This document shows positions 4,301 to 10,789 of a stretch of 64,000 bases of DNA, one piece after another. Source of the stretch: a virus; the IMG/VR virus record IMGVR_UViG_3300012351_000008, positions 15,962 through 79,961 of that record; one strand, 5' to 3'. A model generated the notes under the pieces. It was not told where the DNA came from, searched no databases, and was given only the letters and a program-made list of their open reading frames with translations. Numbering within the stretch: the first letter of the stretch is position 1; each line of letters opens with the position of its first letter. The translations under genes were made by a program, and so were the position numbers.

Positions 4301-4468
4301 ATATTCCCCTTCAATTGTTGTGTTTTGCCTATCATATCATTGCTGAGAAGCGCCTCCAATGGGATGCCTAAAGGTCCATTATTTCGAGCAAACTACTCTG
4401 TACGGTTGTTGGATTGGCCTGTCAAATGGTTGTATTTACAAAGCGAAAAGCCTATGCTATACTCATGT

Positions 4469-4519: not shown

Positions 4520-5479
4520 ATGCAAGACATCGTAATTTATCAAACAAAAGAGGTTATGACGCTAGATCAATGTATTCTAGCCTGGATTGCCGCCAAGAAA
4601 GGGAGATCAAACAGTAGCAAGACAGAAAAAGCCTATCGAGAAACACTTGGACAGTTTCGTTTGCTGTTGCAGGGGTATAAACGTGATCTCGATAGTGATC
4701 CTGGTATTATTGCGCCGCTGGCCCAGGGGTGGGCAGAGCAGACCACCAGTACACGACGTACTGAGGTGACACCTGCAACGTATAACCAGCGTCTAGCAAT
4801 TCTCTCAAGCTTCTATGAGTATGCGATCAAAAATGAAGTGCTGCAGCGTAACCCGATTGAACGTGTAGAGCGGCGTAATCCAAACAAACAATATCAAGCC
4901 AAACAAATTGATACCAAGAAAGTTAAAACCGGCCTGGCTGCCATTGATCGCTCTACAGATGAAGGTAAGCGGGATTATGCAATCCTGAGTATTATGCTGG
5001 CAACTGGAAAGCGTGTGTCAGAAATTGCCAATATTCTTTATGGGGATATCCAAAAGCAGGGTGATACTGTGCTTCTCTCCTGGCCTCGATGTAAGGGAAA
5101 CAAAAAACTTGATCCTGACGTGCTGAAAGAAAAGACAACGAGGGTTCTATACGAATATCTCCATATGTCTTATGGCTCAAAACTTGGACATTTGGCAAAT
5201 GATGCGCCGATCTGGCTTTCCTTCTCAGATCGCAATAAAGGAAAGCAGATAGGAGCACGAACAATCCAGCGAATCTGCGAGACATATCTTGGTACGTCAA
5301 AAGCGCACGCGACTAGACACACCTGGGCCGTTGCTATGATGAACCAGAATGCTACCCTTGCTCAAATTGGGCGCGGGCTCGGACACTCCAATTTGAAAAC
5401 AACCTCAGACTACCTTGAAGAGTTGAGCGCCTATGAGAATCCGTATGCAAGCGCGTTAGAAGATATGTTTGGGATATAG
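4520..5479 (+). CDS. tyrosine recombinase (XerC/integrase family)
   Basis: Catalytic residues TGKRVSE, HATRH, LGH, TTSDY; SAM-like N-terminal domain. Confidence 0.92.
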   Translation: MQDIVIYQTKEVMTLDQCILAWIAAKKGRSNSSKTEKAYRETLGQFRLLLQGYKRDLDSDPGIIAPLAQGWAEQTTSTRRTEVTPATYNQRLAILSSFYEYAIKNEVLQRNPIERVERRNPNKQYQAKQIDTKKVKTGLAAIDRSTDEGKRDYAILSIMLATGKRVSEIANILYGDIQKQGDTVLLSWPRCKGNKKLDPDVLKEKTTRVLYEYLHMSYGSKLGHLANDAPIWLSFSDRNKGKQIGARTIQRICETYLGTSKAHATRHTWAVAMMNQNATLAQIGRGLGHSNLKTTSDYLEELSAYENPYASALEDMFGI

Positions 5480-5491
5480 GGAGATGAAGAG

Positions 5492-5776
5492 ATGACAAAG
5501 TGCCTTGAACAATTACCCCTCTTTGGGCGATTGGAACTTTCTGATGATGGGAAGCAACTCCTTCTTGATGGCATACTGCTTGCTCCAGATCAGGTGATTA
5601 CGTATCACTGCAAGAATGGAAGCGAGCAAGTACCAGCACGGGTCACCTATGATAGCCGGTACGGCTGGTATCTTCGCTTTGAAGAGTTTCTAGGTCATAC
5701 ATATCTTAATAGACCACTCACTCACAAGAGTATTCAGTATATAGTTGCGAGTAGTCAAGGAGAAAATAGCTTATGA
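5492..5776 (+). CDS. hypothetical protein
   Basis: GGAG RBS; operon packing. Confidence 0.6.
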   Translation: MTKCLEQLPLFGRLELSDDGKQLLLDGILLAPDQVITYHCKNGSEQVPARVTYDSRYGWYLRFEEFLGHTYLNRPLTHKSIQYIVASSQGENSL

Positions 5777-6036
5777 GCCAACCGACTACAAACCCACGCC
5801 TACTAGAACAACGCAATGGCATATCCTTTGTTCAATGTTTGCAGATGTGCCTCCAACAACGCGATCTGGTCACCGAGTGGCAACGGCTCTCAGGCAAGAA
5901 GCTCGTAGCCAGCAGCCCTCTAGACCGCATGATTGACGAGGCCACCGGCTACGACATGGCGATCATGCAAGAGTTTGCTGATTTTGTCTATGAATTTGTA
6001 TGGCAGTCATTTGGATTGGAGGAAGTAAAGCCATGA
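5773..6036 (+). CDS. hypothetical protein
   Basis: ATGA overlap with the upstream gene. Confidence 0.65.
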   Translation: MSQPTTNPRLLEQRNGISFVQCLQMCLQQRDLVTEWQRLSGKKLVASSPLDRMIDEATGYDMAIMQEFADFVYEFVWQSFGLEEVKP

Positions 6037-6497
6037 GTGAGTACGAAACACTCGATCTGGACGAAGAGGAAGAAGAAGAAACCGATGAAGGGTGGCAAGA
6101 ATACTGGCTTGTGGTTGGAGGCGTGAGCAAGAAATCTGAACAGGCTATTGAATCAGTCGATGGCAAAGTCTTACGTATGACAGCATCCACTCGTGGCTAC
6201 ACACGACAACTTCAGGAGACAAGAATCAATACTTATTACCCTGGGGTTCCTCCTATCTATGCCGTGTGCCTGCTCTACCTTCCAGACGATGATGATCAGG
6301 GATTCAGTTTCTTTACCGATGATGGAGAGAAGGCCCGTCATTTTTTCATTGCCTCTGCTGATGAGCACCATGATCTGTATATCTATTGCGACGATGGTTC
6401 TATTCCACGATTTGAATCAGATACAACGCAGCTCCGCTTAGTTACCGAGGAAGAATGGTTTGCTATTGCAGACGCGAAGGGGGAAAGTAAGTCATGA
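6033..6497 (+). CDS. hypothetical acidic protein
   Basis: ATGA overlap; GGAGG RBS. Confidence 0.65.
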   Translation: MSEYETLDLDEEEEEETDEGWQEYWLVVGGVSKKSEQAIESVDGKVLRMTASTRGYTRQLQETRINTYYPGVPPIYAVCLLYLPDDDDQGFSFFTDDGEKARHFFIASADEHHDLYIYCDDGSIPRFESDTTQLRLVTEEEWFAIADAKGESKS

Positions 6498-6778
6498 GTG
6501 AGAGGTTTCAAGCTCTATCAGATGGCTATAGCTGGAAAGTCATTGACACCGAAATCACACATTTTATCCGTGGGCGCGGACATGTCGTCCATCACGTCCA
6601 GTGGTGCCAGGATGAGCAAGAAGCGTGCAGCATCGCTGATAACCTTAATAAGACACGAGGGCACGCAGCTAACGAACCGAAATGTTGTGTTTGCGGCTCG
6701 CAACCTGCCGGGCCTGCCGGTGAAGAGAATCCGCGTTGTGGCCCCTGCTGGTCCAAATTGGCAGACATGCATGGATAG
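6494..6778 (+). CDS. hypothetical protein with C-terminal zinc-finger-like Cys pairs
   Basis: ATGA overlap; CCVC...CGPC. Confidence 0.6.
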   Translation: MSERFQALSDGYSWKVIDTEITHFIRGRGHVVHHVQWCQDEQEACSIADNLNKTRGHAANEPKCCVCGSQPAGPAGEENPRCGPCWSKLADMHG

Positions 6779-6992
6779 AGAAACGATGAGGCAAGAACTA
6801 CAAACCCGTCTCTGGCAACACGACAACCTCTGGCGCATTCAGTCCCTTCGCCAACTACAGGACCGTCACGGCACGCTGCAAGATGCCTGGGAGAGCCGCC
6901 GTGACGAGGATGGGCACGTTCTGTTCTTCGAGACGGAGGAGCAGGCCAGGGAGCATATGGACAGTGAAGCAAAGAAAGTTGAGGAAGAATAA
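6771..6992 (+). CDS. hypothetical protein
   Basis: ATG at 6771 overlaps the previous stop; fills the operon. Confidence 0.55.
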   Translation: MDRETMRQELQTRLWQHDNLWRIQSLRQLQDRHGTLQDAWESRRDEDGHVLFFETEEQAREHMDSEAKKVEEE

Positions 6993-7267
6993 TGGAAGAC
7001 GAAATAGCATCACGTGACCTACCAGATGGACGCCGGGCCTATATCATCCACTTAACCTATGGTCGGGCCCGTATCTGCATTGCTAACAAATATTGTCCCA
7101 TGAGCATCGACAACTCGTATTGATATGCTACTCCTGAGCTTGCAGTTAGCAAGTTAAACGAGTGGGACGTTGAAAAAGAAGCAGAACCCGATGGCTGGTT
7201 CCGTAGCCCCAATACTGGCAGGCGAAGACCAGATGGTGACGCGAGCAAAGAATATATCTCATGGTGA
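6992..7267 (+). CDS. 91-codon protein with in-frame TGA at codon 44 (candidate selenoprotein; alternatively a pseudogene)
   Basis: TAATG coupling to the upstream gene; reads MEDEIASRDLPDGRR...IDNSY-TGA-YATPELAVSKLNEWD...EPDGWFRSPNTGRRRPDG...ISW; hairpin at 7137-7155. Confidence 0.65.
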
Positions 7268-7278
7268 TCGCTAGTACA

Positions 7279-7319
7279 ATAAAGGTGCCCGTATGTCTCC
7301 CCAGACCCGGCACCTTTAT
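7279..7319 (+). terminator. terminator-like hairpin
   Basis: ATAAAGGTGCC...GGCACCTTTAT inverted repeat just after the 7267 stop. Confidence 0.7.
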
Positions 7320-7967
7320 CGCTGCTATTGCCAACTGAGAGGACAATTTAGCTCTATTGCTCAGATAATACAGCCTATCGAGCAACGATGTATACACTAT
7401 AGATGAATCATCGACACTTGTCTATAGAGGTTCATTGAACGCAAAAGCACCAGGCCAACAATCCGCTTTCTGGTTGTGCTATGAAATTTAATTAACATGC
7501 ACAGAATCGTTGCCCTGGTGCCTTCGCTTGAGTGGGATACCTTACTGCCTGGCAAATTCTCAAAATGTGTACCCTCTTTGGATACCGCAGCCATTATACC
7601 AGTTACCCACACTCTTGTATAGCCACATTGCATAGCATCATGCTATCACCACGAATCACGCACATTCACGGTCCTGCACTGCTTTCTCGTCGTGGCAGGG
7701 CTTTTTGTGTTGCTTTAGTACTACGTATGACTAACCCATGCAACGACGTGAATTCTCTCTACAGGCTGATTCACTTGATTTTATCTCATCAGTAATGTTA
7801 TAACTTGTATGGTTGTTCTAAATACATTTGTACGGTTGTATTATCAAGACCGTTTGAGGTTCCTCGATAGCGATAGAGGAATAACTATTGTTAGGTGATT
7901 GATACGGTTTGGAACATGTGCGCCTGAAGAGTAAGTGGTAGACACATTTTCACGAAAGGGAAACATC

Positions 7968-8150
7968 ATGACGCAACGTAACCAGTACACACAATTGTCT
8001 TTCTGGCAAGAACCAGAACAGCAGTCCTTGTGGACAGATGAAGAATTGGACAACTTACCTGTAGAGTGGCCCATGAAACCGTTGGCAGAAGTGCGGCAGA
8101 TCGTACAATTGGAGTTGCCGTTTGAGTATGAGGATGAAACTGTAGGGTAA
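7968..8150 (+). CDS. small acidic protein with QLxF-like motifs
   Basis: GAAAGGG RBS; QLSFW, QQSLW, QLELPF. Confidence 0.6.
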   Translation: MTQRNQYTQLSFWQEPEQQSLWTDEELDNLPVEWPMKPLAEVRQIVQLELPFEYEDETVG

Positions 8151-8190
8151 AAAAAGAGCCTACCCTTCTTGTTGGGTAGGCATTTATTTT
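8149..8190. terminator. bidirectional terminator
   Basis: A-tract, GCCTACCC/GGGTAGGC stem and T-rich tail between convergent genes. Confidence 0.7.
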
Positions 8191-8206
8191 GCTTTAACTG
8201 GGTGGC

Positions 8207-8710
8207 TTAGGCTGATATATCATCTCTTTCAGTCCACTCGTCAAAAGTTGGCGTTCCAATCAGCGTACACCCTCGGAAATACCCAAAGAGATGACCGATA
8301 CTGAACTCAATAGGCATATCTCTTCCTTGCAGCATCACCACGTCTGTAGCTGTACTCACAAAAGCGTTAATAATGTGTTGCTCAGTAAAGGACTGCTCTC
8401 CGTAGTCTGATTCTTCATACGCTGCAACCATGCCATAAAAGTAACCGCTAACGAAGTCCTCGCTCGCTACCAGTACGCCGGGAACCTCTTCAGTGATGAT
8501 GTGAGGCCTGGCTATTCCATCATCACCAACAACCAGGCCAGTGTTAATCGTCATGGCATGTGGGTTGCCAAGTACCATTTGTGGCTCAGATCGCTTCTCA
8601 GGTGGGAAGGCCTCGCCAGCCGCGATGTTGCGACGTTGCAGAGGTGTATATTCGAGGATACAATACTTGTTGTCGGTGTCTAACCTTCGTGGAAGTGGAG
8701 AGTGATTCAT
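8207..8710 (-). CDS. hypothetical protein
   Basis: AAGGAG RBS; 167-aa ORF downstream of the XRE gene. Confidence 0.65.
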   Translation of the reverse strand: MNHSPLPRRLDTDNKYCILEYTPLQRRNIAAGEAFPPEKRSEPQMVLGNPHAMTINTGLVVGDDGIARPHIITEEVPGVLVASEDFVSGYFYGMVAAYEESDYGEQSFTEQHIINAFVSTATDVVMLQGRDMPIEFSIGHLFGYFRGCTLIGTPTFDEWTERDDISA

Positions 8711-8799
8711 GGTAAGATACTCCTTGGAAATAGATGTAGTCCCTCGGTTCCAAGCTTAGGACTACCTACTGGCGGCGACTCGTAAAGGGTCGCCATTTT

Positions 8800-9021
8800 T
8801 TAGTCTTTAACGTACAAATTTTCGACGTTTTCCAAAGTGAGCTTTTCGCCAAGCTTTTCACTAAGCGTATTTAACACTTTGTAAGCGAACAGAGTAGACA
8901 CTGCGTTCTTTTCCTTCCCACTCTCCAACCGATTTACGGTTGATATGGACACTCCGGCGTTGCTAGCCAGATCAAACACAGACCATCCTGCTCTTTTTCG
9001 TAATTCTTTCAAATTAGACAT
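8800..9021 (-). CDS. XRE-family HTH transcriptional regulator
   Basis: LKELRKRAGWSVFDLASNAGVSISTVNRLESG; AAGGAG RBS before ATG 9021. Confidence 0.88.
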   Translation of the reverse strand: MSNLKELRKRAGWSVFDLASNAGVSISTVNRLESGKEKNAVSTLFAYKVLNTLSEKLGEKLTLENVENLYVKD

Positions 9022-9064
9022 GCGAATATCTCCTTTTTTAATTTGAAATATCTGTGGCATGCCT

Positions 9065-9200
9065 ATGGTATCTACCGAGTACGACACTGTCAATAAATGC
9101 TCCCTTATGTTCCTATGTCAGATATATCTGTGATACACCATTGACAAAACGAAGTATAACAGGTATAATTGTGATTGTCAAGATGTATCTCTGATATGTC
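9065..9200. promoter_or_regulatory. divergent sigma70 promoters with palindromic operator candidates
   Basis: + strand TTGACA(9141)-17-TATAAT(9164); - strand TTGACA(9093)-17-TACCAT; CAGATATATCTG at 9119-9130 and AGATGTATCT at 9181-9190. Confidence 0.8.
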
Positions 9201-9763: not shown

Positions 9764-10789
9764 ATGGAAAGTGCAATTATCCCCACGCAGGAACAACTCA
9801 TCAAGTTCTTTGAGCGTTGCCCCAATATCATCCTCTATGGGTTCCCCCACGGGGCGGTACAAGACCGATGGGCATTGCTCGCCCTGGTAAGTTACTGTCA
9901 TGTTGGGATGCATCCCAATTGGACCCTAGACGAGCTAGAAGGCCCATATAAGTTGTCACTAAGAGAGATAGCCACGATCACTGGGATTGACCATACAGCA
10001 CTGCGTAAGAGGGCAGGCAAGGACAAGCGAGATGGTGCACTAGATCGCTTGCAGCAGTTAGGATATGTCACAATCCTTGACGCCCGACCCATTGATTTCA
10101 TCAATGGGCAACCCACAGGAAAGCCGCAAACGTACCTCTACATTCATCTTAGAAAGCTCTGGGAGGACAATCTTACCTTCAGTGAGACACACCGTATGCC
10201 GATGGGGAGGCCCGTGAATCCTCGTGATATTGAAATCGTTGTGAGTGCCGGTGTTGACGTGGTCAACACACAAAGTACCCCTTCCACTGTTGACCAGGGC
10301 AACACCTATGTTGACGACAACAACACACCCGTTGACCACGTCAACAAGAACGTTGACAGGGGCAACAACCGTGTTGACGACGCACGCTCAAACTCTGCAC
10401 AAGACTATATAAGACCTATAAGACAAATAAAAGAAAAAGAAAGACCGTCTCCAGTTTTTGAAATTGAAGATCAGGAACCGGAACCACCACAGAGGGAAGA
10501 GTTATCCTTTTCCTTCAAAGCTGACATCACAAGAACATCTAACGCATTCGGTGAGGCTCATCTAAGCAAAGACACTAGAGAGGCAATCACGCAGATATAC
10601 AACGAGGAGAAGGGTCATATTGATATGGCTATGTTTCGGATAAAGTACGATACAGCAAAAGAAGAGACAAATAGAGCAACATTAGAGCAAGTACAACAAT
10701 TAGGTTTTTCAGATAAAAGTTCTTATTTGCTACATTGTCTTCATAAGAAATGCAAACTATTTCATACGTCTATCAACGTATCAGCATGA
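9764..10789 (+). CDS. phage replication initiator (lambda O-like organisation)
   Basis: HTH-like LSLREIATITGI; internal iteron array; followed by a DnaC-like gene. Confidence 0.7.
   Translation: MESAIIPTQEQLIKFFERCPNIILYGFPHGAVQDRWALLALVSYCHVGMHPNWTLDELEGPYKLSLREIATITGIDHTALRKRAGKDKRDGALDRLQQLGYVTILDARPIDFINGQPTGKPQTYLYIHLRKLWEDNLTFSETHRMPMGRPVNPRDIEIVVSAGVDVVNTQSTPSTVDQGNTYVDDNNTPVDHVNKNVDRGNNRVDDARSNSAQDYIRPIRQIKEKERPSPVFEIEDQEPEPPQREELSFSFKADITRTSNAFGEAHLSKDTREAITQIYNEEKGHIDMAMFRIKYDTAKEETNRATLEQVQQLGFSDKSSYLLHCLHKKCKLFHTSINVSA
10253..10445. repeat. iteron array and A-rich tract (probable replication origin)
   Basis: GTTGAC at 10253, 10289, 10310, 10331, 10352, 10373 (last five spaced 21 bp); the first five continue as N3-NNCAAC; then TAAGAC repeats and an A-rich run. 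Confidence 0.75.

Follow-up and report, generated by a model that had tools for sequence, protein, structure and literature searches.

A small gene at positions 6992-7267 of a 64,000-nt stretch of viral DNA (hereafter the window) carries an in-frame UGA at codon 44, and we propose, with a probability of roughly 80%, that this codon is decoded as selenocysteine (Sec), inserted by the SelB protein of the host. The window covers bases 15962-79961 of IMG/VR contig IMGVR_UViG_3300012351_000008, a linear sequence of 79,961 bp (about 80% complete, 48% G+C) from an uncultured, soil-derived phage. Judged from sequence, no element of the classical computational signature by which bacterial selenoproteins are recognised is missing. 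The UGA occupies a column that is mostly Cys in homologs, it is followed by a hairpin with G-U in the loop, the stem of this hairpin covaries in UGA-bearing relatives and not in Cys forms, and relatives of this kind are found in organisms that use Sec. Insertion of Sec by SelB and a selenocysteine insertion sequence (SECIS) is textbook knowledge for cellular genes. A full-text literature search found no report of a selenoprotein of a bacterial virus, and the term "viral selenoprotein" there refers to viruses of eukaryotes.

A UGA codon at the cysteine column of a phage protein family

A preliminary description of the window, made from its letters, had pointed to an open reading frame (ORF) missing from the ORF track, with a TAATG overlap at its start, TGA at codon 44 and 47 open codons thereafter, and all of these statements hold (Table 1). 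It had also noted that translation could not obviously restart near the TGA, and no in-frame ATG, GTG or TTG is indeed present 3' of the TGA within the gene. At E <= 0.001, an exhaustive profile search with the read-through protein returned 1,084 cluster representatives, and the matches cross the TGA position. The family signature consists of a four-stranded sheet, W-C-Y, a helix (A..A...W) and a loop (EPxGWxRHPx[ST]GRRRPxGDxxKEY), and the read-through protein fits it over its full length, including the invariant W58, P66, G68, W69, R71, R77-R79, G82 and E87. The phage family with WCY...EPxGWxR...GRRR named in the preliminary description does exist, and its members mostly have Cys where the window gene has the TGA, as had been anticipated: among the 150 best members, the residue at this column is Cys in 88, Asp in 31, Glu in 7, Trp in 4, Gln in 4 and His in 3. 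The only other notable Cys column is residue 29 (Cys in 42/150), which is independent of column 44.

The family has no name. Cluster look-up gave none, and the ESM Atlas clusters of a homolog contain only "hypothetical protein". The read-through protein alone matches nothing in Pfam or PHROG, and a Pfam scan of 80 family members yielded nothing meaningful; phrog_24748 (PHROG 24748, function not annotated) is matched by 13 of those 80, though not by the window protein itself. A sequence profile search of the PDB found no relative, and a megablast of positions 5000-9000 against phage and E. coli collections found no match. The AlphaFold2 model (predicted local distance difference test score 95.9, predicted template modelling score 0.86) has a 4-stranded sheet plus a helix, and residue 44 closes strand beta-4 right before the helix. 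No significant fold relative emerged from Foldseek against the PDB (best E = 0.38) or from a wide VIA-align search (best Z = 4.9). Small phage inhibitors such as AcrF1 and Ugi were considered as structural matches and rejected, since they match at noise level only, and no fold was assigned.

The model also bears on the possibility of a split gene, in which translation would terminate at the UGA and re-initiate, giving two polypeptides that assemble non-covalently. A gene caller would show two short ORFs at such a locus, and translational coupling is common in the operon (ATGA and TAATG overlaps). However, the window offers none of the three start codons after the UGA, the codon after the UGA is always Tyr (TAY), residue 44 is predicted to lie within a continuous strand-loop-helix, and the conserved G-U loop described below would be left unexplained. 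We regard a split gene as highly improbable.

Protein databases are blind to TGA forms, so the search for further TGA-bearing relatives was moved to DNA. An automated related-locus search found no relative, and a hand-made degenerate DNA pattern was used instead, consisting of TGA-TAY, a gap of 45-66 nt and a back-translated EPxGWxR....GRRR block, with the upstream frame left free. The pattern matched 64 viral contigs, every gap being a multiple of three, and in 63 of the 64 the free upstream frame encodes a homologous N-terminal half (...PLTFGRARIxIG...YDDxW). Eleven further matches in contigs of metagenome-assembled genomes (MAGs) correspond to 10 distinct sequences, and the Cys counterpart pattern (TGG-TGY-TAY...) matched 61 contigs. 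After deduplication, the set contained 71 distinct TGA members, window gene included (58 clusters at 60% identity). In these, the ten codons after GRRR, which lie outside the pattern, have entropies of 0.80/0.66/1.51 by codon position, and P-x-G-D-x-x-K-E-Y-V is kept in 66-69 of the 71. These data indicate that the downstream half is translated in frame.

Each TGA member has a single internal TGA, always at the same column, and 44 of the 71 genes also end in TGA. True TGA stops in the same genes suggest that recoding is specific to one position, which bears on an alternative genetic code, with TGA read as Trp or Gly in the phages or their hosts. Stop-codon recoding occurs in some phages, and the MAGs with TGA forms include one whose label is Peribacteria, which belongs to the candidate phyla radiation. 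Against this stand the fixed column, the TGA stops of the family genes, and the use of TGA as the commonest terminator of the window's contig, where it ends 48 of 107 long non-overlapping ORFs. A genome-wide code change is rejected, being effectively refuted by the TGA stops in contig and family genes, and the probability left for any alternative code is negligible.

In a tree built with the recoded column masked, the window gene falls inside a TGA-rich clade, beside L045, L039 and L036. TGA members cluster on this tree (24 changes, vs about 63 with shuffled labels), with Cys forms interspersed; the tree is poorly resolved because the protein is short. These results can be set against a simple nonsense mutation, by which the gene would be a fresh pseudogene, or the TGA a sequencing or assembly error, in one phage. 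A single substitution in TGT/TGC (Cys) or in TGG (Trp) yields TGA, which is a normal stop in this contig. However, the same-column TGA with both halves intact recurs in 63 viral contigs and 10 distinct MAG sequences, codon periodicity persists downstream, the gene nests in a TGA-rich clade, and the type of hairpin that follows the TGA is seen after only 0.2% of contig TGAs. In addition, four soil-metagenome runs, drawn from several studies, gave contigs that agree in every letter over 6900-7400, so an isolated assembly error cannot account for the TGA. The relatives and the four identical runs exclude a TGA that is unique to this genome or a read error, either of which the preliminary description had listed as a possible refutation, and a nonsense mutation is very unlikely overall.

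The search for cultured phages turned up no TGA form. Both cultured-phage copies that were translated are Cys forms without TGA: Sinorhizobium phage Phosso (RYCF) and Caulobacter phage CcrBL9 (RWCY), which share the motif W/Y-C-Y/F ... GW.[RK]HPKTGR. They belong, with PHROG 24748, to the same protein family as the window gene. Other matches in Caulobacter Bertelyvirus (C1, C2 and others) fall under single annotated genes, and all cultured-phage family members are annotated "hypothetical protein".

A hairpin that accompanies the UGA and not the Cys codon

The preliminary description had reported a 7-bp hairpin with its loop 20 nt past the UGA and G at loop position 2, which is confirmed. The loop, AGUUA, spans 7144-7148 and has U at position 3, such that G7145 and U7146 are +25 and +26 counted from the U of the UGA. 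RNAfold gives -16.1 kcal/mol for 7121-7170 (z = -2.85); by free energy alone, 2.8% of the contig's TGA trinucleotides have an equally stable 50-nt fold after them. A strict SECIS-like test was therefore defined by shape: a contiguous stem of at least 6 bp, a 4-5-nt loop with G-U at loop positions 2-3, and a loop 16-37 nt past the UGA, the last being the spacing criterion of bSECISearch. Only 7 of the contig's 3,203 TGAs (0.2%) pass, the one at 7121 among them. Two others that pass are the TGAs at 10225 and 10231 (window 10225-10270), which share a 7-bp hairpin with a CGUGG loop; they are out of frame with ORF 9764-10789, which marks this as a chance match.

The preliminary description had looked to independent TGA homologs that keep the hairpin, and the 63 viral contigs and 10 MAG sequences supply them, with a hairpin that covaries and is missing from Cys forms. 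In TGA members, the 45 nt starting at the UGA align without gaps, with conservation of at least 90% for both G at +25 and U at +26. Most have a GGUC loop closed by a 6-8-bp stem, and minor loops are AGUU, CGUGC, CGUGA and the window's AGUUA. Across the 71 TGA members, stem columns 17-23/28-34 are paired in 79.5% of cases, vs 63.2% after shuffling, a level reached by none of 500 shuffles. In 57 Cys members, the same columns are paired at chance level (45.1% vs 45.3% shuffled). The covariation score is 0.455 for TGA members (shuffled 0.182) and 0.125 for Cys members (shuffled 0.139), and slid stem registers give at most 0.167 in TGA members. Double changes occur at all 7 stem pairs in TGA members; at pair 21-30, which joins two codon third positions of mostly Ala codons, the combinations are GC (17), CG (15), AU (12) and UA (8). 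The strict SECIS-like hairpin is present in 45/71 TGA members, nearly all exactly 20 nt past the UGA, and in 0/55 Cys members; a stem of at least 5 bp around a GU loop is present in 65/71 and 1/55, respectively. Codon usage under the hairpin differs accordingly between the two forms: codon +8 is Val in 66/71 TGA members (GTC in 51) vs variable (K, L, A, I) in Cys members, and the shared Ala codon +7 is spelled GCG in 74% of TGA members vs 39% of Cys members.

The conserved loop separates Sec decoding from programmed, inefficient read-through of the UGA by a near-cognate tRNA such as tRNA-Trp or by a suppressor tRNA, in which the hairpin would only stimulate read-through, and the full-length protein would be a minor product beside a short one of 43 residues. 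Downstream RNA structures can stimulate viral stop-codon read-through, the column accepts several residues, and Trp stands there in 4 of 150 relatives, the nearest full-length homolog included. However, a generic stimulatory stem needs no conserved loop sequence, whereas here G25 and U26 are conserved and GGUC dominates; this loop corresponds to the SelB determinant of fdhF, and SelD genes of hosts have SECIS elements with loops of the same types. Furthermore, the chief alternative residue at the column is Cys rather than Trp, and in E. coli a U after UGA makes for strong termination. No tRNA genes, and no suppressor or Sec tRNA, were found in the contig, and a search of 44 phage records, the window's included, found neither a suppressor tRNA nor a tRNA-Sec, the near-threshold matches being tRNA-Ser, Tyr and Leu. 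Sec-independent read-through is thus an unlikely explanation. The classical example, the coat/A1 gene of phage Q-beta, similarly extends beyond an in-frame UGA; there, Trp is inserted at a low level without a SECIS, producing a C-terminal extension, whereas the UGA of 6992-7267 lies mid-domain, at a Cys column, and is followed by a SelB-type hairpin.

The phage hairpin resembles the E. coli fdhF SECIS, in which the apical-loop residues G23 and U24 are conserved, G23 and the bulged U17 contact SelB, and a 17-nt upper stem-loop starts 11 nt past the UGA (PMC8659212). As in fdhF-type genes, a stem-loop within the ORF follows the UGA and presents a conserved apical G-U (G23/U24 in fdhF, +25/+26 in the family), and as in bacterial selenoprotein genes, Cys homologs lack the hairpin and the stem is kept by compensatory synonymous changes. 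Unlike in fdhF, the G-U of the phage family is 2 nt further from the UGA. The gene also differs from fdhF-type genes in that it is phage-borne and belongs to an unnamed family with no known redox role, and the window's loop is AGUUA rather than the majority GGUC.

One tight subgroup of TGA members, with ten loci (L007, L010, L015, L016, L032, L043, L048, L061, L062 and L063), has Ser-Ala-Val-Ala-Gly in place of Ala-Ala-Val-Ala-Ala. Its hairpin is UCAGC-GGUC-GCUGG, the stem surviving the amino-acid changes, and a gene for a DUF6166 protein is found near its members.

Selenocysteine machinery in hosts and the proposed mechanism

Eight of the 11 MAGs with TGA forms contain full-length SelA (E <= 1e-74), tRNA-Sec at 66-80 bits and SelD; given the background frequency of SelA described below, this is compatible with Sec decoding but is not an enrichment. 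Caulobacter vibrioides is one of the control genomes in which SelA was not found. In 7 of the 8 Sec-positive MAGs (L144, L145, L146, L148, L149, L150 and L151), mostly Chloroflexota and Planctomycetota with one Gemmatimonadetes, SelD has an in-frame TGA, which suggests that these SelDs are themselves selenoproteins. The hairpins of SelD have GC-rich stems and lie 30-40 nt after the UGA. Their loops (GGU, GGUCG, CGUGC and, by eye, CGUGA in G010) are of the types seen in the phage family, and an N-G-U-N loop was read after the SelD UGA in G001, G009, G010 and G011.

Several observations weigh against decoding as Sec. The Sec genes were read in MAGs carrying relatives rather than in the host of the window's phage. 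SelA is present in roughly one in five bacteria overall; the phylum of G010 is far above this level, with SelA in 191 of 251 sampled genomes (76%), a tally that includes four unpublished genomes (G281, G092, G199 and G227) and hardly depends on them. Since the family occurs in only 1 of these 251 genomes, TGA and Cys forms could not be cross-tabulated against SelA within one phylum. Three of the 11 MAGs with TGA forms have no Sec genes. One of the three carries a sequence (L127) that recurs unchanged as L130 in a Sec-positive MAG of that study, and the two MAGs are assigned to different phyla, one a proteobacterium and the other a Gemmatimonadetes; an identical sequence in two phyla suggests that at least one of these contigs is mis-binned.

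Other points against concern the hairpin and the protein. The phage-family stem has no bulged U such as U17 of fdhF, and the window's hairpin is of a minority type, with a 5-nt AGUUA loop and an AU-richer stem. In this class, which also includes L021, L034, L036, L039, L055 and L057 (loops CGUGC or CGUGA), the stem comprises pair 23-29 and those outward of it, and in L013 and L023 the CGUGA loop is shifted 3' by one base relative to those six. In the nine 5-nt-loop sequences, the shifted stem is 79.4% paired vs 65.7% shuffled, with a covariation score of 0.425 vs 0.198 and double changes at five pairs, but these figures are biased towards structure because the subclass was selected by eye. The window's element and that of L034 differ by three compensatory pairs. 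A covariance model built from 43 GGUC-type hairpins misses both the window hairpin and the host SelD SECIS elements, although it is dominated by the Ala-codon stem sequence and is therefore useless as a similarity test. Likewise, the window hairpin has no Rfam match, but neither has a consensus GGUC-type member, which indicates that the library is blind to so short a hairpin. With regard to the protein, the column is not that of a classical invariant redox Cys, as Asp, Glu, Trp, Gln and His are tolerated; no conserved second or partner Cys is found among the 150 members; and the nearest full-length protein homolog (P0002, 49% identity) carries Trp at the column. The preliminary description had named Trp or variable residues in homologs as grounds for refutation. 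Homologs do show both in part, but this does not outweigh the other checks: TGA forms cannot appear in protein databases, and the window gene falls inside the TGA-rich clade. The selenocysteine interpretation put forward there is supported by those checks that gave an answer.

The following mechanism is proposed. In a Sec-competent host, SelB carrying Sec-tRNA(Sec) would recognise the hairpin at 7137-7155 by the G and U of its loop (+25/+26). The ribosome, having paused 20 nt upstream at the UGA, would then receive Sec from it. Translation would proceed for 47 codons to the real TGA stop at 7265. The phage would contribute only the UGA and the SECIS, with tRNA-Sec, SelA, SelB and SelD coming from the host. 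Such dependence of a viral UGA-containing gene on host Sec machinery would be shared with poxviruses, whose glutathione-peroxidase homologs are selenoproteins, with the fowlpox SECIS reported inside the coding region (PMC1802603). The poxvirus genes were captured from hosts, encode enzymes whose function is known and rely on a eukaryotic SECIS and SBP2, whereas the phage family is phage-specific and would pair a SelB-type element with a bacterial host.

As to function, the place of the gene beside the integrase in temperate phages leads us to guess at a small accessory protein, early or linked to lysogeny, with residue 44 reactive or ligand-binding. Several features argue against a thioredoxin-type redox role, as far as sequence allows: the vicinity of an integrase or serine recombinase, a lone Cys/Sec that can be replaced by Asp or Glu, and an Arg-rich loop. 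Neither a CxxC or UxxC motif, nor a conserved resolving Cys, nor a thioredoxin-like fold was found. A bolder and rather doubtful proposal is that of a widespread selenoprotein family of temperate soil phages with a new fold, whose full-length synthesis would depend both on host Sec machinery and on available selenium, so that the integrase-proximal accessory gene might sense host state or identity, its Sec being a reactive residue directed at a host target.

If the UGA is decoded as Sec, phages make use of a recoding system of their hosts to which gene callers pay no attention, and this family, and probably others too, suffers systematic mis-annotation, either as a pair of fragments or as a pseudogene. 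The known selenoprotein families would gain a member without a recognisable redox fold, and phage gene expression would be tied to host selenium metabolism, a new phage-host dependency. The natural Sec, Cys and Asp variants, together with cultured phages of Caulobacter and Sinorhizobium that carry Cys forms, make the question directly testable.

Genomic setting

The gene is the last in an integrase-proximal, same-strand operon (Table 1). An integrase-headed string of genes together with a gene for a small helix-turn-helix protein on the opposite strand (8800-9093) makes the phage look temperate, as far as can be read from sequence. In 15 other loci, a serine recombinase is found near the family gene; an analysis of neighbours found no conserved partner except recombinases ~2 kb upstream.

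Table 1. Features of the window around the read-through gene
Feature	Position	Strand	Remarks
Promoter-like site	4435..4463		Upstream of integrase gene
Tyrosine integrase gene	4520..5479	+	PF00589, E = 1.4e-18; heads the gene string that ends with 6992-7267
Ribosome-binding site GAGGA	6981..6985	+	Six bases upstream of ATG; direct reading
Read-through gene	6992..7267	+	91 residues; W-[C/U]-Y...EPxGWxRHPxTGRRR family; profile matches both halves
Start ATG	6992..6994	+	Overlaps TAA (6990-6992) of preceding gene
Internal UGA	7121..7123	+	Codon 44, context S-Y-TGA-Y; proposed selenocysteine codon; majority-Cys column of the family
Whole two-tier hairpin, predicted	7128..7165	+	Lower helix 7128-7133/7160-7165, predicted by RNAfold
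Proposed SECIS upper stem-loop	7137..7155	+	AGCUUGC-AGUUA-GCAAGUU; 7-bp stem 7137-7143/7149-7155, one G-U pair
True stop of gene, likewise TGA	7265..7267	+	Direct reading
Strong hairpin after gene	7272..7327	+	-22.5 kcal/mol, z = -4.78; possible operon end

Two further observations concern the operon upstream of the gene. ORF 6494-6778, which has an ATGA overlap with the preceding gene, encodes 94 residues with two Cys pairs (CCVCG ... CGPC) and is zinc-ribbon-like; a Pfam scan of it gave no match. Past the terminal TGA of ORF 6000-6497, the same frame stays open for another 164 codons (6495-6992), of which the first 90 are not protein-like and overlap the better ORF 6494-6778, and the last 74 are gene 6771-6992. 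This open frame is probably due to chance and not a second recoding site.

Downstream of the gene, the preliminary description had placed an operon hairpin. The strong hairpin is there, but it has no U-run and a terminator scanner makes no call at 7272-7327. It opens a stretch of ~670 bp (7268-7934) without a convincing ORF. As the integrase gene is only 2 kb upstream, this stretch may serve in attachment or in regulation.

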